From: an archaeon
Lineage (GTDB): Archaea > Iainarchaeota > Iainarchaeia > Iainarchaeales > CSSED10-239
Direction of reading: 5' to 3'
NCBI GenBank assembly: GCA_037147375.1
Contig: JBAWVI010000013.1
Span: 1 to 14,917, forward strand
DNA length: 14,917 nucleotides
Within the stretch, counting starts at the first letter, position 1, and each line of letters begins with the position of its first letter. The notes beneath the pieces are model-generated. The model saw nothing but the letters and a program-made list of their open reading frames with translations. It had not been told where the DNA came from and searched no databases. The translations under genes and the position numbers were made by a program. Of the stretch, positions 1 through 13,978 are shown in pieces.

Positions 1-305
1 CAACCATAACACCAAATGCAACTCCAGTTCAAGCAATTACACAAACAAGTGCAAAGATTGCTTTCGATTCAAATGAATCAGGATATGCACACGTACATTA
101 TGGATTAGATGCTAACTATGGTATGATAACGCCTGATTCAGCAGTAGTTGCTGATGTAGATAAAAATATCCAATTATCAAGTCTTACATGTGGACGTGTG
201 TACCATTATATAATCTCCGCAAGAGATACATCAAATAATGAAGCAAGTACAAGTGATGCAAACTTTACAACAAGTGCTTGTACTCCTGGTGACACAACAC
301 CACCA
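1..305 (+). repeat. Intragenic long direct repeat, copy 1 (type-A module DNA)
   Basis: Hand alignment of nt 1-300 against 595-894 gives about 29 mismatches in 300 nt. The first 55 nt are identical. The offset is exactly 594 nt (198 codons). Confidence 0.9.
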
Positions 306-3014
306 GCAGTTTCAAATATTGTTGTTACTCCTGCACAAACAACAGCTTCTGTAGCATTCGATTCAAATGAAGCAGGTACTGCAAAAATTGGATATGGTTT
401 AACAGTAACTCATGGGTCAGTTACAAGTTATCAAACAATGATTTCAGGATCTAATGCAATAGTTATTACAGGTCTTACTTGTGAAACATTATACCATTAT
501 TCAGTTTATGCAAAAGATGGATCAAATAATGAAAGCGTTTCAACAGATGCAAATTTCATAACAGAAGATTGTACTCCTGAGGATACATTAGCACCAACCA
601 TAACACCAAATGCAACTCCAGTTCAAGCAATTACACAAACAAGTGCAAAAATTGCTTTCGATTCAAATGAATCAGGATATGCACATGTACATTATGGATT
701 GGATTCAAGCTATGGTATGGTAACACCAGATTCAGCAGTAGTTGCTGATGCAGATAAAAATATCCAATTATCAAGTCTTACATGTGGAAGTATATATCAC
801 TATATAATCTCTGCAACAGATGCAGCAGGTAATGAAGCAAGTACAAGTGATGCAAACTTCGAAACAGCTGGTTGTACACCTGGTGATACAACACCTCCTG
901 AATTTACAATACTTCAACCATCAACAATTCAAACTGCTGGAGATGTAAATATTGTTGTTGAAGCAACTGATGAAACAGCATTTGATACAACATATGTAAA
1001 TAATGTTGTTATTTTTACTGTTGACGATGTTAATAAAATATCAACTTTAACAACTACTGGAAGTACTGCAACAAACTTAAAGATACAACTAACAACAAGT
1101 TTAGTTGCAGGAGAATATGAAGTTGTTGTAAAAATTAAGGATAGTGCAGGAAACTTTAATCAAGAAACATTTAATATTGTTGTTGAAGCCGCAGGTGACA
1201 CAACATTACCTACAATTGATATAAACACAATTAACACAACTTCACAAACAGCAACAATTGAAGCTGATGTTAATGATAACGTAAGCGAATGGTTAGATGT
1301 TTATGCATATGTATATAACGCTGATACAAATGCTTTAATGGTTTCACCTACAAGAGCTTATAGAGCTGGAACAGATATTTCATATCTTATATCTGATCTA
1401 GACGCAAACACAGACTTTAACGTTACAATTTACGTTAAAGATGCTGCTGCAAATATAGGAAATGATTTAGGTACATTTACTACACAAATAAGTACAGATG
1501 ATGTTACAGTACCAACAGTAGATATAAATGTAACAGATATTGCATCAGATGGTGCAACAATAAATGCAATAATCGATGATGATTCAAATGGTTTATTAGA
1601 AGTTTGGTTAGAATATACTGAAGTTGGACATTCAGGTACATATGTTGAAAATCCAGTATATTTTGATTCAAATTCAAATATTTCAATGGATCTTGGTAAC
1701 TTAGATGCAAACACAGACTATAATGTTACATTAAAAGTTAAGGATGCATCTGGAAATATAGGAAGCGATTCAAATGTATTTACAACACTTGTAGATACAA
1801 CTGATGTAAATGAACCTGTTATCTCTGATGTTTCTGTTACTAAACATCAAACAACAGCTGATATAAATTTCACTTCTGATGAAGCTGGTAATGCAAAGAT
1901 TGTATATGGTTTAAGTTCAACTTACGGATCTTCTACAAGTTATCAAACAATGAGTGCAGGATCTAATGAGATTACTATTACAGGACTTACATGTAACACA
2001 GAATACCATTATTTAATTAATGCAAGAGATGCATCAAATAATGAAAGAATTACAGGTGATGCAAATTTCACAACAAGTATTTGTACTGCAAGGGTTACAC
2101 AAGCACCCGTAATTTCAAGTGTTCTTGTTATTGTAGGACAAACAACAACAGATATAAATTTCACTTCAAATGAAGCAGGTACTGCAAAGATCGGATATGG
2201 TTTAACTGCAACACATGGGTCTCTTACAAGTTATCAAACAATGATTTTAGGAACTAACAGTATAGTTCTTACAGGACTTGCATGTAATACATTATACCAT
2301 TACATAATCTATGCAAAAGATGCATCACCTAATGCAAATGAAAGCGTTTCAACAGATGCAAATTTCATAACAGGTACATGTGCAGACACAACAGTTCCTC
2401 TTGTTATTCAATCTGGTCCTTCTGGAATTGTAACAAACAATAATCCAACATTATTTGTAAAGCTTGAAGGTATTGATAATAATTCATCAACTACTTGTAA
2501 GTACAGTACTTCTGCATTTTCATTTGCAACAGAAGGTACAGTAATGACTTGGATGTCAGCAACATCAAGATTTGATGTTAATTTAACTGGATTAACAGAT
2601 GGTACTCAGACATATAATGTAATATGTAAAGATGTTACAGGAAATCAAATGACTGCATACCCAATATCCTTTAATGTGAATACAACTGGTAACTTTGACT
2701 ATACACAAGCACTAAACAAAAATTGGAATACATTATGGTTACCACCTACATTAGCTGAAGATGATAGCAATACAACAATTGGTCATGTTGTTGGTTATAC
2801 TTCATCTGATTATGGATATCTTAACCATTGGTTATCAGCAACAAGTAATTGGGAAACAATCTATCACTATGATGGAACTAACTGGCTTGTTCAATATAGA
2901 GGAGGAATCAATAACGGAATTGGAACTCTAACAGATATGAACGTAGCTTTACAAAATCCATTCTGGATTGATATGAATGTAGCAGATAGATTCCAACTTG
3001 ATTTAGTTGGTTAA
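1..3014 (+). CDS. Giant secreted/cell-surface modular repeat protein (FN3/Ig-like beta-sandwich array), 5'-truncated by the window edge
   Basis: The frame of ORF 123..3014 stays open back to nt 3. The upstream codons (TITPNATPVQAITQTSAKIAFDSNESGYAHVHYGLDANYG) reproduce the module that starts again at nt 597, so the listed ATG at 123 is internal. At least 9 tandem modules of about 95-100 aa are present. Type A occurs twice. Type B occurs three times with motif GYGL..(T)(H/Y)GS.TSYQTM..G.N.I.(I/L)TGL.C.T.YHY.I.A.D.S.NE....DANF.T..C, which resembles FN3 / purple-acid-phosphatase-N domains. One Ig-like module follows. Type D occurs twice (LDANTD[FY]NVT..VKDA.GNIG). A further module precedes a Trp-rich C-terminal domain (NWNTLWLP...YHYDGTNWL...NPFWIDM). 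The TAA stop at 3012-3014 is followed by a hairpin terminator. Confidence 0.85.
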   Translation, partial: TITPNATPVQAITQTSAKIAFDSNESGYAHVHYGLDANYGMITPDSAVVADVDKNIQLSSLTCGRVYHYIISARDTSNNEASTSDANFTTSACTPGDTTPPAVSNIVVTPAQTTASVAFDSNEAGTAKIGYGLTVTHGSVTSYQTMISGSNAIVITGLTCETLYHYSVYAKDGSNNESVSTDANFITEDCTPEDTLAPTITPNATPVQAITQTSAKIAFDSNESGYAHVHYGLDSSYGMVTPDSAVVADADKNIQLSSLTCGSIYHYIISATDAAGNEASTSDANFETAGCTPGDTTPPEFTILQPSTIQTAGDVNIVVEATDETAFDTTYVNNVVIFTVDDVNKISTLTTTGSTATNLKIQLTTSLVAGEYEVVVKIKDSAGNFNQETFNIVVEAAGDTTLPTIDINTINTTSQTATIEADVNDNVSEWLDVYAYVYNADTNALMVSPTRAYRAGTDISYLISDLDANTDFNVTIYVKDAAANIGNDLGTFTTQISTDDVTVPTVDINVTDIASDGATINAIIDDDSNGLLEVWLEYTEVGHSGTYVENPVYFDSNSNISMDLGNLDANTDYNVTLKVKDASGNIGSDSNVFTTLVDTTDVNEPVISDVSVTKHQTTADINFTSDEAGNAKIVYGLSSTYGSSTSYQTMSAGSNEITITGLTCNTEYHYLINARDASNNERITGDANFTTSICTARVTQAPVISSVLVIVGQTTTDINFTSNEAGTAKIGYGLTATHGSLTSYQTMILGTNSIVLTGLACNTLYHYIIYAKDASPNANESVSTDANFITGTCADTTVPLVIQSGPSGIVTNNNPTLFVKLEGIDNNSSTTCKYSTSAFSFATEGTVMTWMSATSRFDVNLTGLTDGTQTYNVICKDVTGNQMTAYPISFNVNTTGNFDYTQALNKNWNTLWLPPTLAEDDSNTTIGHVVGYTSSDYGYLNHWLSATSNWETIYHYDGTNWLVQYRGGINNGIGTLTDMNVALQNPFWIDMNVADRFQLDLVG
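595..899 (+). repeat. Intragenic long direct repeat, copy 2 (type-A module DNA)
   Basis: Same alignment as for copy 1. Type-B modules (306-596, 1818-2108, 2109-2399) also share long nucleotide-identical runs, for example caaatgaagcaggtactgcaaa and gaaagcgtttcaacagatgcaaatttcataacag. Confidence 0.9.
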
Positions 3015-3025
3015 AATCAAATATA

Positions 3026-3061
3026 ATGTTCACAAAAAATGTGAACATTTCTTTTATTTTT
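3026..3061 (+). terminator. Intrinsic-type terminator after the giant surface-protein gene
   Basis: A perfect 9-bp stem, atgttcaca (3026-3034) / tgtgaacat (3040-3048), encloses an A5 loop and is followed by the T-rich tract ttcttttattttt. Confidence 0.65.
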
Positions 3062-3080
3062 AAATTATGGGGTGTAATAT

Positions 3081-4421
3081 ATGAAAAAGTATTTTATAGT
3101 ATTAATTTCACTAATTTTCTTTATATCTTCTGTTTTTGCAACACCAGGCGATTGGAAGGGTATTGTAGATATTAATGGTAGTGAACCTGCAATAGGAACA
3201 GTAGTTTCTGTATATTCTGGAAGCACAAGTCTTGCAACCACAACAACTCCTACAACCGAAGCAGGTGCAATTGCTTATGATTCTAATGGATTTTATATTT
3301 TAGTTTTTGAAACTACCAATAGTGCAGCTTTAAGTTTTAGAGTTTGTGGAATAGAAGCAGAAACAAGTACTTTTAGTTCAGGCACTCATGATTTTAATAT
3401 TTCAGCTAGTTTACAAACAAGTGGAACAACAGGTTGTACTTGTTCAGGTGTTTGTTCAGGTGGTTATTGTGTAAACCCAGGAACAACAGGAGTATGTTCT
3501 TCAAATACATATTATTGTGATAGTGATGGAACATGTGAATCTACATATGGAGAAACAACTTCAAATTGTTCACATGATTGTTCATCAAGTGGCGGTGGAA
3601 GTTCAGGTAGTGGTACAGGATCTGGAACAGGTACTGGTACAGGAACTGGAACAGGCACAGGAACTGATACAAATACAGGAACTGGAACAGGTACTGGAAC
3701 TGGAACAACTACTTTAATAACTGGTGCTGAAAGAGATAACTTATTATCTCAAGCAGATATTAATAGTCTTTTCGGAGCAGGCGTAATAGAAGCTAACTTA
3801 ACTGTTAATTCTTTATATTCAGAAACAAATGTATTAACTTCTGAAGAAGTAAATACATTAACAGAAAATCTTAGTCCAGAATATCAGAATCTTGTTAATG
3901 GCTTAATAGCAAGTCATTCAAATGAAAATGTTCAAGTTACAACTCACTTACAATCTTATGTAGTTACAGATACTTTAACTGGAGTTTCACAAATTGTAAG
4001 TAGAATATCAATAACAATTACTGCTTTAGATGATCTTGGACAAGTTACATATATTGAAGAAATTCCAAAAACAATAGCAGCAAATATAGCTGAACTTACA
4101 TTTAATATCCCTCCAACACAGATATTGAATGCAGATCCTGTAGTATTATTTACTTTTAATAACCTTGCAAGAGGAGAAACAAGAGAAATAACATACATGG
4201 TTAATAAAAACGTACAGACCTTACAAAATAACAACTATTTTGCAGCTGGTACACTTGTAGTTACAACACCAGGCACAACACCACCAATAACAGATACACC
4301 ACCAACTACTCCACCAAAGAGTAATATGTGGTTATATGTTGTAGTAATACTTTTAGTTATTTTGTTAGTAGCTGGTTCAATCCTATATTTAAACAAAAAG
4401 AAACAACCAAAAGGATTATAA
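3081..4421 (+). CDS. Membrane-anchored surface protein: signal peptide, Cys-rich module, (Gly-Thr)n linker, Pro/Thr stalk, C-terminal TM anchor
   Basis: The ATG has GGGGTG (3069-3074) 6 nt upstream. The signal peptide is MKKYFIVLISLIFFISSVFA. The Cys-rich block reads CTCSGVCSGGYC..GVCSSNTYYCDSDGTCE...NCSHDC. A GSGTGSGT(GT)n run follows, then the stalk TTPGTTPPITDTPPTTPP. The TM helix MWLYVVVILLVILLVAGSILYL is followed by the basic tail NKKKQPKGL. Confidence 0.85.
   Translation: MKKYFIVLISLIFFISSVFATPGDWKGIVDINGSEPAIGTVVSVYSGSTSLATTTTPTTEAGAIAYDSNGFYILVFETTNSAALSFRVCGIEAETSTFSSGTHDFNISASLQTSGTTGCTCSGVCSGGYCVNPGTTGVCSSNTYYCDSDGTCESTYGETTSNCSHDCSSSGGGSSGSGTGSGTGTGTGTGTGTGTDTNTGTGTGTGTGTTTLITGAERDNLLSQADINSLFGAGVIEANLTVNSLYSETNVLTSEEVNTLTENLSPEYQNLVNGLIASHSNENVQVTTHLQSYVVTDTLTGVSQIVSRISITITALDDLGQVTYIEEIPKTIAANIAELTFNIPPTQILNADPVVLFTFNNLARGETREITYMVNKNVQTLQNNNYFAAGTLVVTTPGTTPPITDTPPTTPPKSNMWLYVVVILLVILLVAGSILYLNKKKQPKGL
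3606..3713 (+). repeat. Imperfect hexanucleotide (ggw-acw)n microsatellite encoding a (Gly-Thr/Ser)n linker
   Basis: Codon by codon the region reads ggt agt ggt aca gga tct gga aca ggt act ggt aca gga act gga aca ggc aca gga act gat aca aat aca gga act gga aca ggt act gga act gga aca act act. Confidence 0.9.
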
Positions 4422-4466
4422 AAGAAGATCTTAATCATATCTTCTTTTTCTTTTTTTATTTTTTTC
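4421..4466 (+). terminator. Intrinsic-type terminator after the anchored surface-protein gene
   Basis: A 9-bp stem, aaagaagat (4421-4429) / atcttcttt (4439-4447), is followed by a long T tract (ttc tttttttatttttttc). Confidence 0.6.
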
Positions 4467-4521
4467 TAATCTTCCTTGGACGTAAGTTTCTGTAATATTA
4501 TTAAATTACTTGATTATTTTG

Positions 4522-4554
4522 GACATTAAAGTATTATACTCGTTACTCCAAAAT
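4522..4554 (+). repeat. Direct repeat DR1, left copy (33 bp perfect; about 48 bp imperfect from about 4507)
   Basis: gacattaaagtattatactcgttactccaaaat is identical to 6157-6189. The upstream flanks are also related (tacttgattattttg versus tcacttgttaatttca). Confidence 0.95.
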
Positions 4555-4563
4555 AACACTATT

Positions 4564-4571
4564 TTTAAATA
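4564..4571 (+). promoter_or_regulatory. Candidate archaeal-type TATA box (TTTAAATA) for the ATPase gene
   Basis: The box centre lies about 24-25 nt upstream of ATG 4592. No Shine-Dalgarno motif lies between, which fits a leaderless transcript. The call holds only if the host is archaeal. Confidence 0.45.
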
Positions 4572-4591
4572 TATCTTACTATGTTATATGT

Positions 4592-6130
4592 ATGATAGCA
4601 GATAAAAAATTTGTTAATAGAGAGAAGGAATTACAGTTCCTAAATAAACTATATAAAAATAATAAATCAGATTTATTTATACTTTATGGAAGAAGGAGAA
4701 TAGGTAAAACCCAATTAACTTTAGAATTTTTAAAAAATAAGAAAGGCACATATTATATGTGTAGTGAGGAAGGGGATTTAATAAATATTAAAAGCTTTCA
4801 AAAGGAATTATCAAAAAATATTGATAATGAATTTAATACTTTAAAAATAGATAATTGGTATGATTTGTTTTCCATATTTTTTAAGTTATATACTAAAAAA
4901 GAAAAATTAATAATAATTATTGACGAGTTTCCTTATTTGATTAAAAAAAACCCAGCAATTCCATCTATTTTTCAAAAATTATGGGATGAATTATTAATTA
5001 ATAAAAATATATTTTTAATTTTAACTGGGTCATCAGTCTCAATTATGGAAAAAAAAGTATTAAATGTTAAAAGTCCATTATATGGGAGAAGAACTGCACA
5101 ATGGGATTTAGGACCAATTCCATTTAAGCACATTTCTTCTTTTTTACCAAATCACAATTTAATTGATTTGTATAAAATATATTTTGTTTTTGGTGGTATT
5201 CCTGCCTATTTACAAAAATTAAACAAAGGGATAAGTAAGATAAATGGGATACCCATTTCTGAAAAAAGTAAGATAAATGGGATACCAATTTCTAACAAAA
5301 GTAAAATAAATGGGATTTCTATATTTGGGGACTCATTTGAAACGAGTGTAATTGAACAAATATTTACTAAGGGTAATTTTTTAAATCAAGAAGGTAATCT
5401 TCTTTTAAATTATGAATTTTCAGAAACAACAAATTATAAACTTATTTTAAGTGCAATCTCACAAGGTAATTTAAAACAAAAAGAAATAGTTGATTTCACA
5501 CATCTTGATTATTCATTAGTTTCTAAATATTTATCTGTTTTGAAAAATATATCTATAATAACAGAAGAAATCCCAGTAACTGAAAGTAAAAGATTTAAAG
5601 GTAGATTATATAAAATAAAAGATAATTATTTACAATTTTGGTTTAGATATTTATTTTCTGATTTATCATATGTTGAATCACATGAACCAGAAGAAATATA
5701 TAATTTTTATAAAACGGATATGGATGCTTATTTTGGATATAAATTTGAAGATCTAATTAAAGAATTATTTACAAATTATGAATTACCCACCAAAAATAAA
5801 TATAATTTGTTTGGTAGAGTTTGGGGTAAAATGCCATTAAAATATATTGTTGCTAATAATAAGTCAACATATGAGATTGATATTGTTGGTATTGATAGTA
5901 TTACAAAAAAGAACATTCTTTTTTGTGAAGTTAAATGGAAAGATAATGTAGATGCAAGTATAATTGCAAAAGATCTTATTTTAAAATCTAAATATATTAA
6001 ATGGGGAATAGATAATAGATCTGAAGAATTTATTATTATTGCAAAAAGCTATTCTAATAAAATAAGCCAAGTTGATGATGTTAAATTTACTTGTTTTGAT
6101 TTAAAAGATATTAATACTTTTCTTAAATAA
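4592..6130 (+). CDS. AAA-type ATPase of the Arch_ATPase (PF01637-like) family with a DUF234-like PD-(D/E)xK nuclease-fold C-terminus
   Basis: Walker A is LYGRRRIGKTQL (GRRRIGKT = 4688-4711). Walker B is LIIIIDEFPYL. LILTGS and GGIPAYL motifs are present. The C-terminal YEIDIVGID...LFCEVKWK matches the D...E.K core. The gene contains an in-frame 33-nt tandem repeat. Confidence 0.8.
   Translation: MIADKKFVNREKELQFLNKLYKNNKSDLFILYGRRRIGKTQLTLEFLKNKKGTYYMCSEEGDLINIKSFQKELSKNIDNEFNTLKIDNWYDLFSIFFKLYTKKEKLIIIIDEFPYLIKKNPAIPSIFQKLWDELLINKNIFLILTGSSVSIMEKKVLNVKSPLYGRRTAQWDLGPIPFKHISSFLPNHNLIDLYKIYFVFGGIPAYLQKLNKGISKINGIPISEKSKINGIPISNKSKINGISIFGDSFETSVIEQIFTKGNFLNQEGNLLLNYEFSETTNYKLILSAISQGNLKQKEIVDFTHLDYSLVSKYLSVLKNISIITEEIPVTESKRFKGRLYKIKDNYLQFWFRYLFSDLSYVESHEPEEIYNFYKTDMDAYFGYKFEDLIKELFTNYELPTKNKYNLFGRVWGKMPLKYIVANNKSTYEIDIVGIDSITKKNILFCEVKWKDNVDASIIAKDLILKSKYIKWGIDNRSEEFIIIAKSYSNKISQVDDVKFTCFDLKDINTFLK
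5234..5326 (+). repeat. In-frame 33-nt tandem repeat, about 2.8 copies (SKINGIPISEK / SKINGIPISNK / SKINGISIF)
   Basis: The units are agtaagataaatgggatacccatttctgaaaaa (5234-5266), agtaagataaatgggataccaatttctaacaaa (5267-5299) and agtaaaataaatgggatttctatattt (5300-). Confidence 0.95.
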
Positions 6131-6156
6131 TATCTTTTAATCACTTGTTAATTTCA

Positions 6157-6189
6157 GACATTAAAGTATTATACTCGTTACTCCAAAAT
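6157..6189 (+). repeat. Direct repeat DR1, right copy
   Basis: Identical 33-mer to 4522-4554. It lies 27 nt after the ATPase stop codon. Confidence 0.95.
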
Positions 6190-6227
6190 CTAGTTGATTT
6201 TAAGATTTAGATTTGTGACAACCAGTT

Positions 6228-6245
6228 TAATTATGCTTGGCCAGG
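6228..6245 (+). promoter_or_regulatory. GC-rich shared motif DR2, copy 1 (taattATGCTTGGCCAgg)
   Basis: 16 of 18 positions, including an exact 11-mer atgcttggcca, recur at 7356-7373. It stands out as a GC-rich island in AT-rich spacer, about 60-70 nt upstream of the next gene start. Confidence 0.6.
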
Positions 6246-6258
6246 AGCCTAGGAAAGC

Positions 6259-6266
6259 TTTAAATA
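6259..6266 (+). promoter_or_regulatory. Candidate TATA box (TTTAAATA) for the RhuM-family gene
   Basis: It is preceded by the purine-rich ggaaagc (BRE-like). The expected TSS is near 6288-6292, and GGTG at 6294-6297 lies 6 nt before ATG 6304. Confidence 0.4.
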
Positions 6267-6303
6267 CAGATTTTAAGACATTATTTATAGATTGGTGGAT
6301 TTT

Positions 6304-7332
6304 ATGGATAATAAATTAACTATAAGAAATAGCACAACTGAATTTTTAATATTTACTTCTCAAGCTGGAGAAGATGGTATTGAAGTTAAATTCGAAGATG
6401 AAAATGTTTGGTTAAGTCAAAAGATGATGTCCAAATTATTTGATGTTCAAATAAATACAATCAATGAACATCTAAAACATATTTTTTTTTCAAATGAATT
6501 AGATGAAATTTCAACTATTCGGAATTTCCGAATAGTTCAAAAAGAGGGTAATAGGAATATAACTAGAAAAATTGATTTTTATAATCTAGATGCAATAATC
6601 TCTGTAGGATACAGAATAAATTCCCAAAAGGCAACTAGATTTAGAATCTGGGCTACAAAAATCCTAAAAGAATTTGCAATAAAAGGATATGTTCTTGATT
6701 CTGAAAGATTAAAGAATGGTACTTTCCTAAATAGAAAATATTTTGATGATTTATTATTAGAGATTAGAGAAATTAGAGCTAGTGAAAGACAATTCTATCA
6801 AAAGATAACAGATATTTATTCAACCTCAATTGATTATAATAAAGATGATGAATTAACAAGAGAGTTTTTCTCAGTAGTTCAAAATAAATTGCATTTTGCA
6901 GTTCATGGAAATACTGCTGCAGAACTAATTATGACTAGAGCAAATAAAGAAAAAGATCATATGGGTTTAACAACTTGGAAGAAATCACCCAATGGGAAAA
7001 TAATAAAAAGTGATGTTAGTATTGCTAAGAATTATTTAAATAAGAAAGAAATTGAATCATTAAATAGAATTGTAACAATGTATCTTGATTATGCAGAAGA
7101 TCAAGCAAAAAGAGGTGTGCCAGTAACTATGAGTGATTGGTCAAAAAAGCTTAATGCATTTTTAAAATTTAATGATAGAGATATTTTGAATAGCCCTGGC
7201 AAAGTAACAAATGAGATTGCAAAACATTTTGCAGAAAATGAATTTGAAAAATATAGACTAGTTCAAGATAAACTTTTTGAATCAGATTTTGATAAAGAAA
7301 CAAAAAAACTATTATCAACCAAAAAGAAATAA
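6304..7332 (+). CDS. rhuM: RhuM-family protein (Virulence_RhuM-like)
   Basis: The core FYNLDAIISVGYRINSQKATRFRIWATKILKEFAIKGYVLDSERLK and the N-terminal ..VWLSQKMMSKLFDV..NTINEHLKHIF are characteristic of the RhuM family. The ORF track starts at TTG 6292. I prefer ATG 6304 because GGTG lies 6 nt upstream, the same pattern seen at other genes here. Confidence 0.8.
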   Translation: MDNKLTIRNSTTEFLIFTSQAGEDGIEVKFEDENVWLSQKMMSKLFDVQINTINEHLKHIFFSNELDEISTIRNFRIVQKEGNRNITRKIDFYNLDAIISVGYRINSQKATRFRIWATKILKEFAIKGYVLDSERLKNGTFLNRKYFDDLLLEIREIRASERQFYQKITDIYSTSIDYNKDDELTREFFSVVQNKLHFAVHGNTAAELIMTRANKEKDHMGLTTWKKSPNGKIIKSDVSIAKNYLNKKEIESLNRIVTMYLDYAEDQAKRGVPVTMSDWSKKLNAFLKFNDRDILNSPGKVTNEIAKHFAENEFEKYRLVQDKLFESDFDKETKKLLSTKKK

Positions 7333-7355
7333 TTTTTTTCTATGTAGTTTATATC

Positions 7356-7373
7356 TAATGATGCTTGGCCACG
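7356..7373 (+). promoter_or_regulatory. GC-rich shared motif DR2, copy 2 (taatgATGCTTGGCCAcg)
   Basis: See 6228-6245. It lies 24 nt after the RhuM stop and 57 nt before ATG 7430. It is followed by a tccc-GAAA-ggga hairpin (7379-7390) and the palindrome ggatatatatcc (7388-7399). Confidence 0.6.
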
Positions 7374-7429
7374 CACCCTCCCGAAAGGGATATATATCCA
7401 TAAAACTATAGTATATTTGGCGATTAACT

Positions 7430-8269
7430 ATGATTGATCTTATATCTGATAGAAAAATTTTAGATAAGTTTATTATTGAATTTACAAATGTATTAGAAAA
7501 ATATTCAAAATATGTAGTTGTTTCTGGTTTTGTTGCAATCTCAAATGCAAGATCAAGAGGAACAGAAGATATTGATCTTATTGTTGAAGAAATGTCTTTT
7601 ACTACTTTTAATAACTTTTTCAAAGATATATATAATTTAAATTTTGAATGTATTCAATCTGATGATGTAAATGAAATATATAATAATTATTTATTACATA
7701 AAGAGATAATTAGATTTGCATATAAAGATACATTAATTCCAAATATTGAATTTAAGTTTCCTAAAAACAAAATTGATGAATATACTTTATCAAAAAGAGT
7801 TAAACTTCCATTAACTGGACTAGATATATATTTTGCAACAATTGAATCAACTATTGCATATAAAGAACATTATCTTTGTGGAGAAAAAGATTATGAAGAT
7901 GCATATCATCTTAGAAAACTATACGTAGATACTATTAATTTTGAAGAGATTGAATTAATTAAAAGAATGATAGATAAATATCTTTATAATAAAGTAGAAG
8001 ACAAGGGAAAATTAAAAGAAAATATTGAACCAATAATTTATTTTACAAAGAGAGATAAATCTCATTTAGAATTTATTGATAAATGGGTTGAATTTGTTAA
8101 AACTCATCCTTATGAAGAATGGAAAAAGCAGCATTCTGATTTTTTAGATTCTCAAATTATTCATTCTATGGAATTCTATCAAAGATTATTAAAAGAACCA
8201 GATGGCGCAAAGAAAATAAGAAGTATTATGGGCTGGAACAAAAAGACTCCTTATTGGTTTGAAAAATAA
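7430..8269 (+). CDS. Pol-beta-superfamily nucleotidyltransferase (AbiEii / DUF2204-like) with an uncharacterised Trp-rich C-terminal extension
   Basis: The NTase signature hG[GS]-x13-DxD reads VVVSGFVAISNARSRGTEDIDLIV. A downstream acidic strand NIEFKF is present. The helix IAYKEHYLCGEKDYEDAYHL resembles the (K/R)xKDxxD helix of this NTase group. The last 90 aa or so (WVEFVKTHPYEEWKKQHSDFLDSQ...) are unrecognised. Confidence 0.6.
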   Translation: MIDLISDRKILDKFIIEFTNVLEKYSKYVVVSGFVAISNARSRGTEDIDLIVEEMSFTTFNNFFKDIYNLNFECIQSDDVNEIYNNYLLHKEIIRFAYKDTLIPNIEFKFPKNKIDEYTLSKRVKLPLTGLDIYFATIESTIAYKEHYLCGEKDYEDAYHLRKLYVDTINFEEIELIKRMIDKYLYNKVEDKGKLKENIEPIIYFTKRDKSHLEFIDKWVEFVKTHPYEEWKKQHSDFLDSQIIHSMEFYQRLLKEPDGAKKIRSIMGWNKKTPYWFEK

Positions 8270-8393
8270 TCATCCTAGTTTCTATATTCTTCAATTTCTG
8301 TAATCATTATATTTTTAAATAAAACGGCTTATCTATATATACCTAATTATATTTTATTATCAGCCTACTAAATTTCGAGAGTGAAAACAAGTT

Positions 8394-9545
8394 ATGCCTA
8401 CAAAAATCAGAAGAAAAGTATACAAGGATGAATCCTGGTCTGATACTATTATCTCTGATATTAAGAAAGGAGAAGTTGTAGACATTACAAAAATATTACC
8501 TCTTGTAACTCCAGGCACAGAACTTAGAAAGGGCCTTGATGAAATCCTAAATGGTAACCTTGGAGCTTTAATTGTTCTTGGAATAAACGATGAACTTAAA
8601 TCCCTTCTTCAAGGTGGAATTAATCTAGATGTTCCTTATGGTTCATCAAGATTATTTGAACTTGCAAAAATGGATGGAGCTATTGTTGTATCTAATGATT
8701 TAAAAAAAATAGTTTCAGCAAACACTCATCTTATGCCAAACAAAGAAATACCTTCATCAGAAACAGGAATAAGGCACAGAAGTGCAGAACAAACTGCAAG
8801 GCAAACAGGCTTACCAGTTATTGCAATCTCACACAGGAGAAGCATTATTTCTTTATTTTATAGAGATCAAAAGTATGTTCTTCAAGACCTAAGATTATTA
8901 CTTGTTAAATCAAACAATAGTCTAAACAACCTAAAAGACTATAGAATAAGAATAGATTCAGATCTTAATTACTTAATACATAATGAAATAAACAGTTTAT
9001 CAACTGTCTCAGAAGATGCACTTTCAATTATTCAAAAACTACTTTATTTCTTTAAGCACTCAAGCGAGCTTGATATGCTTGTTATTGAGCTTGGAGAACA
9101 AGGAACAGACATCATGCAAAGCTTGTATGAAATCAATTATGGAATAGAAGAAACCTTAGCTATGCTTATCTTAGACTACTCAAGCAAGGAAATGAGTAAG
9201 CAAGAAGCTCTTACACAAGTTGAGAACCTAAAGAAGATGGGTTTAAGGATGATATCTGATACTGATAAGCTATCAGAATTTGTATCTTTAGGCTCAAGTA
9301 GTACAGTTCCATCACTTGACTTCCATTATCCAAGAGGATATAGGATATTATCAAAGATACCGAGATTATCTCCTAAGTTAATTGAAGACATGATAAAAAA
9401 GTACAAATGCATATCAAATATGCTTAATTTAGATGCAGAAGAACTTTCAAAAGATCTAAGTATTAATCTAGTTCAAGCAAAGTACATAGTAAGTCAGTTA
9501 TCTAGTTTATCAGAGAACATAACAACAGATTTCTTTGATATTTAG
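8394..9545 (+). CDS. disA: DNA integrity scanning protein DisA (diadenylate cyclase, c-di-AMP synthase)
   Basis: The DAC domain motifs are present: PGTELRKGLDEIL..NLGALIVLG, LAKMDGAIVVS and ETGIRHRSAEQTARQTGLPVIAISHRRS. The PRGYRILSKIPRLSP linker/C-terminal signature is typical of DisA. The length is also DisA-like (383 aa). Confidence 0.85.
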   Translation: MPTKIRRKVYKDESWSDTIISDIKKGEVVDITKILPLVTPGTELRKGLDEILNGNLGALIVLGINDELKSLLQGGINLDVPYGSSRLFELAKMDGAIVVSNDLKKIVSANTHLMPNKEIPSSETGIRHRSAEQTARQTGLPVIAISHRRSIISLFYRDQKYVLQDLRLLLVKSNNSLNNLKDYRIRIDSDLNYLIHNEINSLSTVSEDALSIIQKLLYFFKHSSELDMLVIELGEQGTDIMQSLYEINYGIEETLAMLILDYSSKEMSKQEALTQVENLKKMGLRMISDTDKLSEFVSLGSSSTVPSLDFHYPRGYRILSKIPRLSPKLIEDMIKKYKCISNMLNLDAEELSKDLSINLVQAKYIVSQLSSLSENITTDFFDI

Positions 9546-9621
9546 TGTATTTTCCTTCTATAAATATGTTTATATACTTATCTTGCCTATATTATATATA
9601 ATTGGTTAATATAAAATCTAA

Positions 9622-9646
9622 AAGCATGAGAGTGCTTCTTTTTTTT
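9622..9646 (+). terminator. Hairpin + T8 terminator downstream of disA
   Basis: The stem is aagca (9622-9626) and tgctt (9633-9637) with loop tgagag, followed by c and tttttttt (9639-9646). Confidence 0.5.
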
Positions 9647-9706
9647 GTAGAACACCAATAAATATCAGCAAAGACTGAACATCGAATATAAAAAAGTGAT
9701 TTTAGA

Positions 9707-9898
9707 ATGGAAGGAACAGTAAAGTTTTATAACTTCAAGAAAAGATTTGGTTTCATAACAGGAGAAGACGGTAAAGACTACTTCGTACATGAAACAGGAA
9801 TTATACAAAAGGGTTCTGTAAGAGACGGAGCTAAAGTAACATTTGAAGTTGTAACAGATGATAGAGGAGCAAAAGCAACAAACGTTAACGTAGTTTAA
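9707..9898 (+). CDS. Cold-shock domain protein (CspA family, 63 aa)
   Basis: The sequence GTVKFYNFKKRFGFIT..DGKDYFVHETGI...G..V.FEV..DDRGAKATNV contains RNP1-like (K)RFGFI and RNP2-like YFVHE motifs. The size is typical. GTGAT lies 6 nt upstream of the ATG. Confidence 0.85.
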   Translation: MEGTVKFYNFKKRFGFITGEDGKDYFVHETGIIQKGSVRDGAKVTFEVVTDDRGAKATNVNVV

Positions 9899-9932
9899 AC
9901 TCTATTGTTTAAAGAACTTACGAATAATTTTT

Positions 9933-9983
9933 TAGATGATTCTTTCCTCTTTTAAAAAAAGCTTCATCTAATATCTTTTTTTT
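9933..9983. terminator. Hairpin/T-tract terminator region between convergent csp and DUF1003 genes
   Basis: A 7-bp stem, tagatga (9933-9939) / tcatcta (9964-9970), has inner cttt(t)/aaaag pairing and is followed by T8 (9976-9983) on the + strand. On the - strand, a T7 run lies inside the loop. Confidence 0.45.
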
Positions 9984-10016
9984 AATAAATATATTAAATT
10001 AGAACCTTAGCTATAT

Positions 10017-10733
10017 CTATAGCTTGTTTTTCTTATTTTTTCTTTCTTGTTCTTCAAGTATATCAAGCTGAAGCTTTTGTATTTCAAGTAGTCTTTGCCA
10101 TTGATCTCTAGTTAAGTGATCAAGCTTTTCATGTATGTGTCTTATCTCAAGCTCAGCTTTAAGATTAATCTTGTAATCGTTTTCAGATCTTAGTCTATCC
10201 TTTTGTTCCTTCCTGTTTTGGCTCATCATAATGATTGGAGCTTGAATAGCAGCAAGACAAGATAAGATTAAGTTTAAAAGAATGAATGGATAAGGATCAT
10301 ATGGTTTAGCCATCATAAGACTTGTATTAATTATTATCCAGATAACTAAAACAATAAAGAAAGAACTAATAAATCCCCAAGAACCTCCAAAGGTTGCGAC
10401 CTTATCAGCTATTCTTTGTCCTTTTGAAAGTCCGGTTTCATCTAAGCTAAGTTCCTTAACAAGAGATTCTTGATCAATCATGCTTTTTACAACTTGCTTA
10501 TCAATCTTAGATATTTCTCCTTTTTCTTTCTTTAAGAGATCTTCCATGTATTGATATCTATATTTTTTATATTCTTCTCTTGAAATATAATTCGTATTAT
10601 TAAATTCAGGATATTTCTTTTTAATAAGTTCAATTACTTGTAAATTAATTAAATCATAAGGAACTGCATCTATTATCTTAATAGGTTTTTTAGTAATATA
10701 GCAAATTACATTTACTTCTTTTTTATTTTCCAT
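10017..10733 (-). CDS. DUF1003-family integral membrane protein
   Basis: GSWGFISSFFIVLVIWIIIN (TM1) and PYPFILLNLILSCLAAIQAPIIMMSQNRKEQKDRLRSENDYKINLKAELEI..IHEKLD match the conserved DUF1003 core, including the two-TM layout and the coiled-coil tail. Confidence 0.75.
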   Translation of the reverse strand: MENKKEVNVICYITKKPIKIIDAVPYDLINLQVIELIKKKYPEFNNTNYISREEYKKYRYQYMEDLLKKEKGEISKIDKQVVKSMIDQESLVKELSLDETGLSKGQRIADKVATFGGSWGFISSFFIVLVIWIIINTSLMMAKPYDPYPFILLNLILSCLAAIQAPIIMMSQNRKEQKDRLRSENDYKINLKAELEIRHIHEKLDHLTRDQWQRLLEIQKLQLDILEEQERKNKKNKL

Positions 10734-10846
10734 AAGTTAATCCTTTAATACAAGTCTTGATTATCTATTATATCCAGAAGATAAATATTAATTTAAATGT
10801 ATGGTTTTTATATATATTTATAGATATATTTTAAAAGTTGATAAAT

Positions 10847-11548
10847 ATGAAAATGAAAATAAAAAGTGTAGTTAATGTATTTAAGAAACCTAAGGAATCT
10901 TTGGTTAAGAAGAAACCAGTTATAAAACCAAAAAGAAAAGAGTTAATTAAAAAGTTTTTTGGGTTTGAGTTTAATATTAAAAAAGAAGTTAAAAAACCAA
11001 CAGATCTTTTAAAAAAGGAAAAGCATATAATGGATAGGCTTGTTCATGTTAAAGAAAAATGTCAAAACTTAAACAACATGCATAATACATACAAGTTTAT
11101 AAGAACATTAAAAGAAGAAGGAATAACTGGAAAAAACATAAGAGAATACACAAATTTATATCCAGAGCATATTTATAGTAAGCTTGGAAATATGGAACCA
11201 AAGGATAAAATAAATATTTTACATCTAATGGGCTTTGATCTTGGTAAAATGGAAACTATTAAACCATTTGATTTAGAATATAATCAGCACATGCCAAGCT
11301 TACGAACACAATTATATAAAAAGTTTGGTTCTAATAAAGAAGCATTAAAAGAATTAAATAAATTTTATAGTTTAAGACATATTGGAAAAGGTTTTCCAAT
11401 AAGAGAAATGCTTGAAACATTTCCAATTGATGCTATGCTTAGAGAATTTAGTTATGAGGATATAAGAAATAGGATTAGTAGTGTAGATGGAAGACTTCAT
11501 ACTGATGAAGGAGTTAGAAAGTTTGCAGAATTAATTTATAGAAAGTAA
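10847..11548 (+). CDS. Hypothetical Lys-rich protein (ORFan by eye)
   Basis: A long ORF with coding-like composition. The ORF track starts at TTG 10838 and the first ATG is 10847. The tatatattta box at 10811-10820 lies about 27-36 nt upstream. No recognisable motif was found. Confidence 0.55.
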   Translation: MKMKIKSVVNVFKKPKESLVKKKPVIKPKRKELIKKFFGFEFNIKKEVKKPTDLLKKEKHIMDRLVHVKEKCQNLNNMHNTYKFIRTLKEEGITGKNIREYTNLYPEHIYSKLGNMEPKDKINILHLMGFDLGKMETIKPFDLEYNQHMPSLRTQLYKKFGSNKEALKELNKFYSLRHIGKGFPIREMLETFPIDAMLREFSYEDIRNRISSVDGRLHTDEGVRKFAELIYRK

Positions 11549-11549
11549 A

Positions 11550-11882
11550 CTATTTTTTATTTTTGCAATTTTTACATCTCTTAAGTAAATCAGTATAACT
11601 TTTCTTTTTATTAACTTTATGATTTAAGTGGCCCTTAATGGTTTTAGATGAAAAACTAATTTTTGGAAGAGGGCTTTTATGATTGAAACCTCTGTTCTTC
11701 ATTTCCTTTACAATTTCTTCATGTCTTTTGTAAATGCTTTTAGGTTCTAGTAGATCATTTTTTATATATCCATCAATAGATATTCCTTTTTTAATAGTTC
11801 CAACAAACATATGTATTTCAACATGTTCCCCAAGAAGATGCTTATCGCACATCTTATTTGTAGGTGTCATCCACATTCTCAT
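11550..11882 (-). CDS. Small DenV/Pyr_excise-like protein (putative pyrimidine-dimer DNA glycosylase family), tentative
   Basis: The N-terminus MRMWMTPTNKMCDKHLLGEHVEIHMFVG resembles the MR(L/M)W..P..L....LLGEH.E.H signature of short pyrimidine-dimer-glycosylase-like proteins. The C-terminus CKNCKNKK is basic and CxxC-containing. The call rests on memory of the motif only. Confidence 0.4.
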   Translation of the reverse strand: MRMWMTPTNKMCDKHLLGEHVEIHMFVGTIKKGISIDGYIKNDLLEPKSIYKRHEEIVKEMKNRGFNHKSPLPKISFSSKTIKGHLNHKVNKKKSYTDLLKRCKNCKNKK

Positions 11883-11976
11883 GTTAATCAGTTTTAAATA
11901 ATTGGGATTAAAAATTAGAAAGAGCCTCTAGAGCTGATTCTAAATTTAGTTATTAGCTAGTTTTAAATTTATCTAC

Positions 11977-12022
11977 CCCCCACATATACTAAGAAAGCAT
12001 CTATTTATATACTTTGTGGGGG
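11977..12022 (+). promoter_or_regulatory. Fic promoter region: TTTATATA box (12004-12011) bracketed by the GC-rich inverted repeat CCCCCACA / TGTGGGGG
   Basis: The arms at 11977-11984 and 12015-12022 are perfect reverse complements. The TATA centre lies 26.5 nt upstream of ATG 12034. Confidence 0.45.
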
Positions 12023-12033
12023 TGTATATCTAT

Positions 12034-12918
12034 ATGGTGTACATAAAGGAAAAAAAGATCGGAAAAAGAAAAATATACTCCCTTCGTCATAATTTTAGAT
12101 ACAAAGATGCATACAGAACAGAAGAGAGATACTTAGGTACAGAAATACCAAAAGACATTGATAAACAAAAATTTGATTTTTATTTAGAAGTTATATCTGA
12201 TAAATTAAAAGAAATAGATTTAATTAAAGAAAAAATAGATAAGGATCATAAAAAAGCACCATCAATTGTATTAGATAAAGAAAATGAGCAGTTTGCATTA
12301 TTATTCACCTATAATACAAACAAAATTGAAGGGTCAACCTTAACATATAAAGAATCAGTAAACTTATTAATTCATAACATCTCTCCAAACAAACCAACAA
12401 GGGATATTAAAGAAACTGAGGCTCATCAAAACTTATTTTTAGAATTAATTAAGAAAGAGCAAAAGATAACTTATCAAAATCTTCTTGAATGGCATTATAA
12501 ACTATTTAAAGATACAAAACCAGAACTTGCTGGAAAAGTGCGAGATTATAAAGTTATTATATCAGGTTCTAAATTCGTTCCTCCATCTCCTATAGAAGTA
12601 AATTCAGAATTAATGGATTTCTTTAAATGGTATTTAAAGAACAAAGATGTTCTTCATCCTGTTGTTCTCTCTTGTTTATGTCATTTAAAATTGGTAACAA
12701 TACATCCATTTGGTGATGGGAATGGAAGAATAACAAGATTAATAATGAATGTGGTATTAAATAATTATAATTATCCATTGTTTGTAATAAAATATACAGA
12801 TAGAGTTGATTATTATAATTCACTCCAAGGATCAAACCTAAAAGAAGACCAAACAATATTTATAAAATGGTATATTAATGAATACATTAAGTTTACAAAA
12901 GAATGGTACAAGATTTAA
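12034..12918 (+). CDS. Fic/DOC-family protein (AMPylase-type), class II with an internal inhibitory helix
   Basis: The canonical Fic motif HPFGDGNGRITRL lies at 12703-12741. The upstream inhibitory motif [S/T]xxxE[G/N], here TNKIEG, lies at 12316-12333. The ORF track starts at GTG 12016. ATG 12034 is preferred because of TATA spacing and the gggggtg upstream. Confidence 0.85.
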   Translation: MVYIKEKKIGKRKIYSLRHNFRYKDAYRTEERYLGTEIPKDIDKQKFDFYLEVISDKLKEIDLIKEKIDKDHKKAPSIVLDKENEQFALLFTYNTNKIEGSTLTYKESVNLLIHNISPNKPTRDIKETEAHQNLFLELIKKEQKITYQNLLEWHYKLFKDTKPELAGKVRDYKVIISGSKFVPPSPIEVNSELMDFFKWYLKNKDVLHPVVLSCLCHLKLVTIHPFGDGNGRITRLIMNVVLNNYNYPLFVIKYTDRVDYYNSLQGSNLKEDQTIFIKWYINEYIKFTKEWYKI

Positions 12919-12978
12919 ATAAACATAAGTTGTATTTTATTAATCCTTTTGAGAAATGGCTTTTAACTTTTGGTGTTA

Positions 12979-13050
12979 AGCCTCTAGAGGGATTTGAACC
13001 CCCGACTTTCAGTTTACAAGACTGACGCTCTACCACTGAGCTATAGAGGC
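12979..13050 (-). tRNA. tRNA-Thr (anticodon UGU), 72 nt, no intron, CCA not encoded
   Basis: The reverse complement folds by hand into a cloverleaf: acceptor GCCTCTA/TAGAGGC, D arm GCTC-AGTGGTA-GAGC, anticodon arm TCAGT-CTTGTAA-ACTGA, variable loop AAGTC, T arm GGGGG-TTCAAAT-CCCTC, discriminator T. Confidence 0.9.
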
Positions 13051-13175
13051 ATATAACTTTTCTTTTACTAAACAAAAATACTCTTTTTTATTAAAAAAAT
13101 AGTTATACTATAATATAATATATATAAGAAATCTTTATAAATAATTGGGTTCCTATCTTTTCATAAGGTGTGCTT

Positions 13176-13976
13176 ATGGTAAGTGATTTAGATACTAAAT
13201 TAGATGAAATATATCATAAGTATGGATATGGATATAATTCTTCTGAAATACAGAAATTAAGAGAAATAACAAGAAACCCAGAATTAACTAAATGGTTAAT
13301 CTCTGCAATAGGAAGTTATTATTCGATTGCAAAGAAAAGATTAGGTACAAGTAATAAAATAACTATAACCGATGTTCTAGAAAGATTAAAACCATCAATT
13401 GAATTTATGAAAAACAAGAAGAATCTAGAATCTATTAAACTAAATGATTATATTATTAAAACAGAGTATGGATTCCCAAAGCATGTTGAAAATATAATTG
13501 AATATAGAATTTATTCAAAAGAAAATAAAGTTATTGGAACAATTGGTTTTGTTATATCTAAAAACAAAAGAGGATCTTCTCAATTAATTATGAATCATCT
13601 TCAAGGACTAGAACCAAATGTTAATACTCTTGAAACAATAAACAAATTAAATAAAGATCTTGGTGTATCTTGGAGAAACCTAGTTATTAAATTCTTAAAA
13701 AACTATGCACATAAGAATAAACATAAATTTGTTTATTTATTACCTCGTGATTTTAATGCATCTTTACCTGAAAAGATGTACAGAACAGAATACAAAAGAC
13801 AACTTAGAATGTATATTAATAGTGCATTAAAATCTGGAGTTCTTCCTGAAGAAATTGCGTTCTCAAAAGTTCCAAAAAGAAGTGGAACAAAAATAAAGAG
13901 TGCCTTGAAAGCAACAGTTAAAGGAAAGAATCTAAAAGAATTAAGAAAAATAAATGTTTATAAAATAATCAAATAA
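13176..13976 (+). CDS. Hypothetical Lys-rich protein (ORFan by eye)
   Basis: A long ORF. The ORF track starts at GTG 13170. ATG 13176 has AAGGTG (13165-13170) 5 nt upstream. No recognisable catalytic motif was found. Confidence 0.55.
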   Translation: MVSDLDTKLDEIYHKYGYGYNSSEIQKLREITRNPELTKWLISAIGSYYSIAKKRLGTSNKITITDVLERLKPSIEFMKNKKNLESIKLNDYIIKTEYGFPKHVENIIEYRIYSKENKVIGTIGFVISKNKRGSSQLIMNHLQGLEPNVNTLETINKLNKDLGVSWRNLVIKFLKNYAHKNKHKFVYLLPRDFNASLPEKMYRTEYKRQLRMYINSALKSGVLPEEIAFSKVPKRSGTKIKSALKATVKGKNLKELRKINVYKIIK

Positions 13977-13978
13977 AC

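Follow-up and report, generated by a model that had tools for sequence, protein, structure and literature searches.

A conserved 39-bp dyad before PDC-S27-type ATPase genes of archaea: a candidate operator that may double as a junction for single-gene gain and loss

In T4-type phages, promoter early stem-loop (PeSL) cassettes are described in which promoter-containing motifs bound insertions and deletions (indels) the size of one open reading frame (ORF) and which yield mini-circles (Arbiol et al. 2010, PMC2839356; PMC4122927). The motifs flank single non-essential ORFs in hyperplastic regions, and recombination between neighbouring motifs deletes the ORF (PMC2839356; PMC4122927). We analyzed a 14,917-nt stretch from an archaeal metagenome-assembled genome (MAG; GCA_037147375.1, contig JBAWVI010000013.1, positions 1 to 14,917 of the forward strand; the window) in which a direct repeat containing a 39-bp dyad brackets a single gene for a 512-residue ATPase (4592-6130, + strand). 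By analogy, the PeSL regulatory cassette would be the closest functional counterpart of this dyad-bounded gene: short conserved promoter motifs flank single ORFs, and the motifs bound the indels between relatives. However, the present case lies on an archaeal chromosome, its motif combines a 39-bp dyad with a B recognition element (BRE) and TATA box but lacks a terminator stem-loop, and the dyad is tied to one gene family, whereas the PeSL motif is common to many ORFs; mini-circles are known from the phages. On a narrow balance of probability, the dyad is the operator of a clade of PDC-S27-type genes and doubles as a short-homology junction for gene gain and loss. The finding is a variant of operator plus regulatory-cassette shuffling, attached to an uncharacterised candidate defence family abundant in archaea.

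The exact 33-mer GACATTAAAGTATTATACTCGTTACTCCAAAAT was found twice on the + strand, at 4522-4554 (copy A) and 6157-6189 (copy B), and a search allowing up to three mismatches revealed no third copy in the window. The end of copy A lies 37 nt before the ATPase start codon (ATG, 4592), and 26 nt separate the end of the stop codon (6130) from copy B. None of 200 dinucleotide shuffles gave a match, and the repeat-gene-repeat layout was also present in three assemblies of independent origin, which share 99.98% (L001), 98.7% (L003), and 93% (L002) identity with the window. Because the same layout recurs in these assemblies, an assembly artefact is excluded, and together with the shuffles this rules out chance, as had been claimed in a first-pass annotation of the window for the two exact copies bracketing the ATPase gene. 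That annotation had also noticed about 15 nt of degenerate similarity to the left; the similarity exists, but its true length is 29 nt, with 21/29 positions identical (72%). The repeat including this extension spans 62 nt at 87% identity (4493-4554 and 6128-6189, both + strand); the first of these consists of a 23-nt left part and the 39-bp dyad, and the second begins on the TAA stop codon of the ATPase gene. No Rfam match (E ≤ 1) was obtained at the repeat, and ARAGORN detected no tRNA fragment there, the one tRNA in the window being tRNA-Thr at 12979-13050.

The 33-mer proved to be the right-hand 33 bp of a 39-bp dyad with the structure ATTTTGGA-N6-AGTATTATACT-N6-TCCAAAAT. The outer arms, ATTTTGGA and TCCAAAAT, are 8 bp each, are mutual reverse complements, and stand 31 bp apart, while the centre is an 11-bp inner palindrome, AGTAT-T-ATACT. 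The full dyad before the ATPase gene (Pal A, ATTTTGGACATTAAAGTATTATACTCGTTACTCCAAAAT) occupies 4516-4554 and holds the same upstream position before ATPase orthologues of ten lineages. The orphan copy behind the gene (Pal B, 6151-6189) has a left arm decayed to ATTTCAGA; in L002, this arm differs again (ATCTAAGA) and the 33-mer is unchanged. The compared loci, denoted here by L numbers, encode ATPase orthologues 60-85% identical to the window protein, or 95% in the case of L002, which belongs to the window's own lineage; the related archaeal loci total 233,030 nt.

A dyad was present upstream of the ATPase gene in 10/10 lineages. A relaxed dyad pattern gave 36 matches in the 233,030 nt of related loci, against 0.02 expected, and every one of them adjoined this ATPase clade or the one syntenic locus that lacks the gene. 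When one genome per GTDB species was scanned for AGTATTATACT-N6-TCCAAAAT, a pattern that demanded the exact inner motif and right arm and that diverged copies could escape, 10 matches were obtained: three archaeal, one per genome, and seven bacterial, which were dismissed as chance matches since the left arm was absent. An exact 22-mer of the repeat had no match in GTDB genomes. Among viral contigs, neither an exact 18-mer nor the left-arm pattern was matched, and the right-arm pattern had a single match (L031) without the left arm. A more distant orthologue with 47% identity (L030) had no dyad. The ATPase module itself occupied unrelated contexts, for example between FtsJ and RPA in L029. In L023 (33-4100), it was located between a reverse transcriptase gene (RVT_1) and a bAvd-like gene, in a cluster resembling a diversity-generating retroelement (DGR).

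This distribution does not bear out the possibility, raised in the first-pass annotation, that the 33-mer is an ordinary element preceding many unrelated genes. Repetitive extragenic palindromic (REP) elements and miniature inverted-repeat transposable elements (MITEs) occur in tens to hundreds of copies per genome. A dispersed repeat of the REP, bacterial interspersed mosaic element, or MITE type was rejected on the copy number in this exact-motif scan and on the absence of any copy away from the ATPase slot in the fetched loci. Target-site duplication by a transposon, insertion sequence, or MITE was likewise rejected: the same 39-bp element appears in unrelated contexts, and no transposase is present.

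Among 15 distinct copies, 25 of the 39 dyad columns were invariant. Identity to the window copy leveled off at 85% across the compared lineages; in the same comparisons, identity at third codon positions dropped to 50-69%, and the 60-nt flanks were at background (about 38-62%). At the level of the alignments, then, the dyad was conserved well above neutral sites. This conservation is coupled to a fixed promoter geometry. A TATA-like box, TTTTTAAATATAT (4562-4574, + strand), starts 7 nt past the dyad and about 25 nt ahead of an ATG without a Shine-Dalgarno sequence, and the same geometry was observed at all orthologous loci, with a dyad-to-ATG spacing fixed at 36-37 nt in ten lineages. Several neighbouring genes do carry GGTG-type Shine-Dalgarno sequences. 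The ATPase mRNA is probably leaderless, and the dyad would then abut the BRE. A dyad at a fixed distance from BRE and TATA box, conserved across orthologues beyond neutral expectation, is the arrangement of an archaeal operator or upstream activating site.

The first-pass annotation had alternatively viewed the repeat as a duplicated promoter module with sigma-70-like hexamers. The repeat is indeed promoter-associated and duplicated, but the promoter is an archaeal BRE/TATA promoter with a dyad. Because the organism is archaeal, the TTGxxx/TATACT logic of sigma-70 is inapplicable, and the hexamer matches were at background, with 22 in the region compared to 17.2 ± 5.0 in shuffles and a score of only 9/12 for both repeat copies. 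A sigma-70 promoter was therefore excluded.

A symmetric element of this kind might also act as folded DNA or RNA, in the manner of an integron attC site, a REP- or MITE-type element, or a terminator. As single-stranded DNA (ssDNA), the copy-A dyad is predicted to pair in two stems, an outer one of 8 bp and an inner one, with an internal loop between them; this paired-unpaired-paired layout resembles that of attC, and the more symmetric copies folded well, with z-scores of -4.8 to -6.3. Integrons, which are also reported from Archaea, share with the present loci a one-directional array of single-gene units split by imperfect palindromes. However, copy B did not fold (-0.4 kcal/mol, z = +0.3). 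The variable columns of the dyad (9-13 and 27-31) were mostly unpaired in the hairpin model, the paired columns never varied, and no measure of hairpin covariation exceeded the shuffles. The attC core sites R''/R' have the consensus RYYYAAC/GTTRRRY, which is absent from the dyad, with its arms ATTTTGGA and TCCAAAAT. An IntI gene and an Rfam match are lacking, there is one copy per genome, and the dyad stays on the 5' promoter side of its gene, where the homology between lineages begins at its left end, whereas attC lies 3'. A hairpin element is accordingly a very improbable explanation. Since the sequence is conserved, the variable positions show no hairpin covariation, and copy B does not fold, the dyad would instead act as a sequence-specific site in double-stranded DNA. 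We read it as a candidate protein-binding site that would serve a dimeric or tetrameric DNA-binding protein as its operator or upstream activating site. Its dyad symmetry, fixed distance from the core promoter, sequence conservation, and a winged-helix gene alongside recall the operators of autoregulated defence or toxin genes of the winged helix-turn-helix (wHTH) type. Compared to a generic archaeal operator, it is unusually long and tripartite (8-bp arms 31 bp apart plus the inner 11-bp palindrome) and is often duplicated 3' of the gene.

The adjoining gene encodes a protein composed of an AAA+ ATPase_2 domain, a winged helix, and DUF234. Pfam searches returned PF01637 (ATPase_2) and DUF234 plus a weak wHTH match, and the PADLOC profiles PDLC04984 (4.3e-46) and PDLC04985 (3.3e-25) assigned the protein to the candidate system PDC-S27. 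DUF234 is listed within the PD-(D/E)XK superfamily (PMC3424549), and the motif EIDIV...CEVKW was visible in the ATPase alignment. PDC-S27, an ATPase fused to PD-(D/E)XK, is reported to rank with the commonest immune candidates in archaea, with an antiviral activity that is unvalidated and no known regulation (PMC12988326). The closest homologues of the window protein were from unclassified archaea, Aenigmarchaeota, Woesearchaeota, and Nanoarchaeota. For an AlphaFold model (mean predicted local distance difference test score 77.7), the closest PDB structures were those of the Walker-type ATPase PAB2304 (2qen) and the archaeal Orc1/Cdc6-origin DNA complex (2qby), followed by subunits of the origin recognition complex (ORC), all with low template modelling (TM) scores of 0.24-0.36. 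The modeled protein thus appears to combine an initiator-like AAA+/winged-helix front half with a nuclease-like C-terminus. The wHTH segment EIVDFTHLDYSLVSKYL was nearly invariant across the dyad-bearing ATPase clade, a pattern that would fit autoregulation. The most plausible binder of the dyad would be this winged helix itself, and binding could then autoregulate a potentially toxic nuclease. A clade-wide putative operator of 39 bp offers a handle on PDC-S27, in the form of a predicted binding site, a promoter architecture, and possible autoregulation.

The fold matches also raise the possibility of a replication origin with origin recognition box (ORB)-like sites beside an Orc1/Cdc6-like gene. 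As in Orc1/Cdc6-ORB systems, an AAA+/winged-helix protein would be encoded beside dyads that it could bind, to judge from the fold similarity; the fold search returned Orc1/Cdc6 and ORC bound to origin DNA, the dyads adjoin the gene, and the surrounding DNA is AT-rich. Yet the protein belongs to another family (PF01637 plus DUF234, PDC-S27, not Cdc6) and ends in a PD-(D/E)XK nuclease, and the TM-scores are low. The gene is mobile and dispensable, being absent from L021 and L032, and sits in a variable island. The cumulative GC skew of the window has no turning point. We regard an origin at this locus as highly improbable.

Within the ATPase gene, positions 5233-5331 comprise three in-frame tandem 33-nt units encoding SKINGIPISEK-like 11-mers. 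The resulting 33-aa insert (residues 213-245, a low-confidence linker) is absent from all orthologues outside the window lineage. The insert region coincides with a patch that is hypervariable between the window and L002.

In 5/10 lineages, a second dyad was found 3' of the gene. The two copies were identical at 37/39 positions in the window group, where the second copy starts 20 nt after the stop codon; at 36/39 in L029 (16 nt), L038-40 (46 nt), and L026 (108 nt); and at 39/39 in L024/25 (234 nt). The N6 spacers differed among lineages and were identical or nearly so within one genome. The duplicated segment always stopped at the right end of the dyad or at most 4 nt past it, with only a decayed TATA-like stretch beyond, which in the window is TTTTAAGATTTAG at 6198-6210, behind Pal B. 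In L024, the similarity continued to a former start codon, in which ATG now reads AAT. On the left, by contrast with this sharp edge, the duplicated extension varied by lineage (0, about 15-18, 23, or at least 33 nt).

These features can be accommodated if the two direct copies are the footprint of short-homology recombination that moved a promoter-plus-gene module, with copy B as an orphan operator copy bearing a decayed left arm and a decayed TATA box. A circular copy could have been inserted at a resident dyad by a single crossover, or the movement could have taken the form of unequal crossing-over, or of tandem duplication followed by deletion. The crossover would fall within the best-conserved stretch, and insertion or unequal exchange would duplicate the homology common to donor and recipient; such a shared-homology crossover would explain why the left extension varies, why the right boundary is sharp, and why the perfect 33-mer adjoins a flank with only 72% identity. 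Recombination between the two copies would remove the gene and leave a solo dyad.

Another way to obtain two copies is passive: a unit of dyad, TATA box, and ATPase gene was duplicated in tandem, the second ORF was deleted or replaced, and copy B is a non-functional leftover whose intactness is fortuitous. The decayed TATA-like stretches at the right offset after orphan copies, the similarity up to the ex-start codon in L024, and the decaying left arm of copy B agree with such a history, and arrays of ATPase paralogues and A-B-A gene orders are common in the islands (L024, L028). It would, however, require two steps, independently in five lineages. In addition, orphan dyads match their partners at 36-39/39 positions, but just to the right of them the sequence is unrecognisable, and the solo copy of L021 keeps the 25 invariant positions despite about 14-16% divergence of its flanks. 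A relic of a tandem ATPase array is a possible reading, compatible with the data yet unnecessary, and we consider it unlikely.

Gene orders around the ATPase varied further. In L020, L027, and L028, the ATPase gene has the 3' end of a YhcG gene on one side and the 5' start of a YhcG gene on the other, and L026 has the order YhcG-ATPase-dyad-PDC-S01. The YhcG-ATPase-YhcG order could stem from a tandem array or, equally, from a circle of about 2.85 kb. The gene next to the ATPase in L026-L028 had been considered as a Rep protein or integrase; it is actually a YhcG/DUF1016 PD-(D/E)XK protein. L004 and L009 have one dyad each, and their ATPase genes are bracketed by other direct repeats that do not include it: repeats of about 250 nt in L004 (3388-3639 and 5226-5498, 85-88% identity), which contain a small ORF, and 42-nt repeats in L009 (5685-5726 and 7688-7728, 93% identity).

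An occupied and an empty site could be compared directly in one pair of loci. L038-40 have the order S-layer-like gene, first dyad, ATPase gene, second dyad, right flank. In L021, a 382-kb contig from another archaeal MAG, the ATPase is missing and a single dyad lies between the same flanks, a difference of 1553 bp; its flanks are 84-95% identical to those of L038, with about 14-16% divergence around the solo copy, and this copy keeps all 25 invariant positions. L008, which is more distant, carries the ATPase with the upstream copy alone. The difference between L038 and L021 is gene-sized and bounded by the copies, and its simplest reading is recombination between copies with no dedicated integrase. 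Direct repeats at both ends with a single copy at the empty site thus hold for L038 versus L021 and fail for the window lineage. There, the syntenic L032 (90% identical across DUF8150-DisA) has a YhcG/DUF1016 gene and no dyad in the slot; its homology to the window stops at about 4492/4493, exactly where the 62-nt repeat begins on the left, and is picked up again at about 7345. The empty site that the first-pass annotation had proposed to look for in related genomes was accordingly found in the L038/L021 pair, with two copies against one between the same flanks, but not in the window's own lineage. Indels of ORF size bounded by promoter motifs, as in PeSL cassettes, were observed for the ATPase (L038/L021), for RhuM (window/L002), and for YhcG (L032).

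The first-pass annotation had taken the geometry as that of a site-specific cassette flanked by att sites or target duplications. Gain and loss of a repeat-bounded gene is real (L038/L021), and the lack of an integrase or transposase in the window, which it had pointed out, was confirmed by the Pfam search. However, no integrase, transposase, or IntI was found among the called genes of the approximately 233 kb of related loci either, and the repeat is not derived from the target, since in all lineages one and the same element is found 5' of the gene; nor does L032 contain a copy. Campbell-type attL/attR pairs and solo long terminal repeats resemble the present case in that direct repeats bracket the insert and one copy stays at the empty site (L038 versus L021). 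They differ in that here there is no integrase and no tRNA target, the left repeat length varies by lineage, and some lineages have unrelated repeats.

Several observations weigh against the operator-and-junction reading. The solo dyad of L021 (3101-3139, compared with L038 2763-2801 and 4316-4354) reads GGAGT...TGTCC where both L038 copies read GGACA...ACTCC, that is, its asymmetric positions are reverse-complemented. All 12 spacer bases are reverse-complemented relative to L038, with 12/12 matching the gene-proximal halves, and the central T is uninverted. Flipped spacers around an uninverted centre are not predicted by simple crossing-over between direct repeats, and none of the simple crossover schemes that we worked through by hand reproduced the combination. 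The L021 dyad is moreover intact without an adjacent ATPase and was the sole dyad found in the scan of that genome, which speaks against the ATPase as the only binder, or else the loss of the gene was recent. L032, the closest relative of the window without the ATPase, contains no dyad copy at all. Finally, the low divergence of copy B from its L002 counterpart could reflect constraint or equally a recent co-transfer of the whole module.

The last point arises from a mosaic of divergence between the window and L002. The surface-protein coding sequence was 12.5% diverged, other intergenic DNA 14.5%, and the DUF8150 region about 35%, compared to about 1-2% for the ATPase gene body, 1/39 for Pal A, 0/33 for copy B, and 1/56 for the next 56 nt (6190-6245, + strand), which end in the 18-nt element TAATTATGCTTGGCCAGG. 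Hypervariable patches were located at 4571-4606, 5224-5298, and 6078-6155. A test for purifying selection on copy B (1/89 against 14.5% intergenic divergence, P ~ 1.5e-5) was not relied on, since divergence is mosaic and just as low in the ATPase gene body (about 1-2%), so that possible recent co-transfer confounds the comparison. The mosaic across window positions 3650-6245 suggests a recent exchange of the ATPase module between lineages.

A more active role of the gene product has also to be weighed, in which the AAA+/winged-helix part recognizes the dyad, the PD-(D/E)XK domain cuts or recombines it, and an excised circle re-integrates at resident dyads, in an att-like site-specific recombination with no classical integrase. 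The dyad brackets the gene in 5/10 lineages, a single copy occupies the empty site of L021, and the module occupies unrelated contexts (FtsJ/RPA in L029, inside a DGR in L023). Copies within a genome share lineage-specific spacers, and two palindrome copies are at the same time terminal inverted repeats. The fold resembles that of origin-binding initiators and is fused to a nuclease, and the flipped copy in L021 hints at an action on the dyad arms. On the other hand, half of the lineages have the upstream copy only, and the non-dyad repeats of about 250 nt and 42 nt that bracket the gene in L004 and L009 fit better with generic homology-driven events. No contig showed the terminal overlap of a circle, no relatives of the ATPase were found on viral contigs, L032 has no resident site, and PDC-S27 is a widespread chromosomal family. 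Self-mobilisation of this kind is distinctly unlikely in our judgment. The corresponding view of the PDC-S27-type ATPase-nuclease and its dyad as a minimal, autonomous one-gene mobile cassette acting on its own dyad is a long shot. If it were true, the dyad might serve as an origin for the excised circle and the flipped L021 copy would be a trace of the reaction. Part of this family of defence candidates would then be selfish integrative elements that need no classical integrase, a new kind of minimal mobile element.

Under the preferred reading of the dyad as operator and short-homology junction, the copy-gene-copy pattern with its one-copy empty site provides a route for swapping single-gene defence modules in small, integrase-poor, DPANN-like genomes. 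The exchange of defence modules appears to run via short conserved promoter elements. The T4-type phage cassettes would then have a parallel on the chromosome of a cellular organism from another domain.

The surroundings of the ATPase gene contain other units of this type. The host is an archaeal MAG with AT-rich DNA (window GC 20-36%), and PADLOC assigned three candidates in the window: the ATPase (PDC-S27), a RhuM-family gene (PDC-S05), and a Fic gene (PDC-S04/SoFic). The slot thus resembles a defence island, with surface-protein genes on one side and, on the other, the DUF8150, DisA, cold-shock-domain (CSD), and DUF1003 genes of a conserved backbone. The RhuM-family gene (6304-7332, + strand) has its own TATA box and a GGTGG Shine-Dalgarno sequence and, compared with L002, amounts to about 1.13 kb of inserted DNA. 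The 18-nt repeat TAAT(T/G)ATGCTTGGCCA(G/C)G brackets the gene on the + strand, with a left copy at 6228-6245 and a right copy at 7356-7373; the latter is directly followed by the BRE/TATA sequence CCCGAAAGGGATATATAT of the DUF8150 gene. In L002, RhuM is missing and the repeat occurs once. In its geometry, this second one-gene unit matches the ATPase unit.

In L032, a whole DUF8150-type promoter module occurs on both sides of YhcG (about 4955-5040 and 6060-6135), and in L004 a BRO-N gene is flanked by TTTTGCACTGGACA. The RhuM, YhcG, and BRO-N units vary in presence among relatives. In these islands, then, single genes are as a rule delimited by duplicated promoter-proximal elements. A GC-rich promoter module with the order G(C/T)TTGG(C/T)CA(C/G)G, a C-rich segment, CGAAA (BRE-like), and ATATATA recurred before DUF8150, YhcG, and BRO-N, at the two L032 sites, at 7360-7429 in the window, and at 10590-10654 in L004.

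Each PDC-S01-type gene (AAA_14/DUF4143) was preceded by two tandem, paralogue-specific palindromes of about 20 bp, such as TTGTTCAATGCACTGAACAA or ATATGGATTGGTAATCCATA (L008 7445-7500, L004 2040-2100, L024 850-910, L026 2490-2560, and L009 2730-2790 on the - strand). L021 retains these palindromes, though its PDC-S01 ORF is also missing. The PDC-S01 dyads suggest that operators in these islands are paralogue-specific.

Toward its left end (1-3014 and 3592-3719), the window contains, within surface-protein genes, long tandem repeats of about 291-303 nt (fn3/Ig-like) and a GT-rich 12-nt repeat coding for Gly/Thr. One surface protein, of 446 aa, ends in a C-terminal transmembrane anchor. On the other side of the island (8394-9898), this archaeal MAG encodes a cold-shock-domain protein and a DisA diadenylate cyclase of bacterial type, both of which are conserved in L032.

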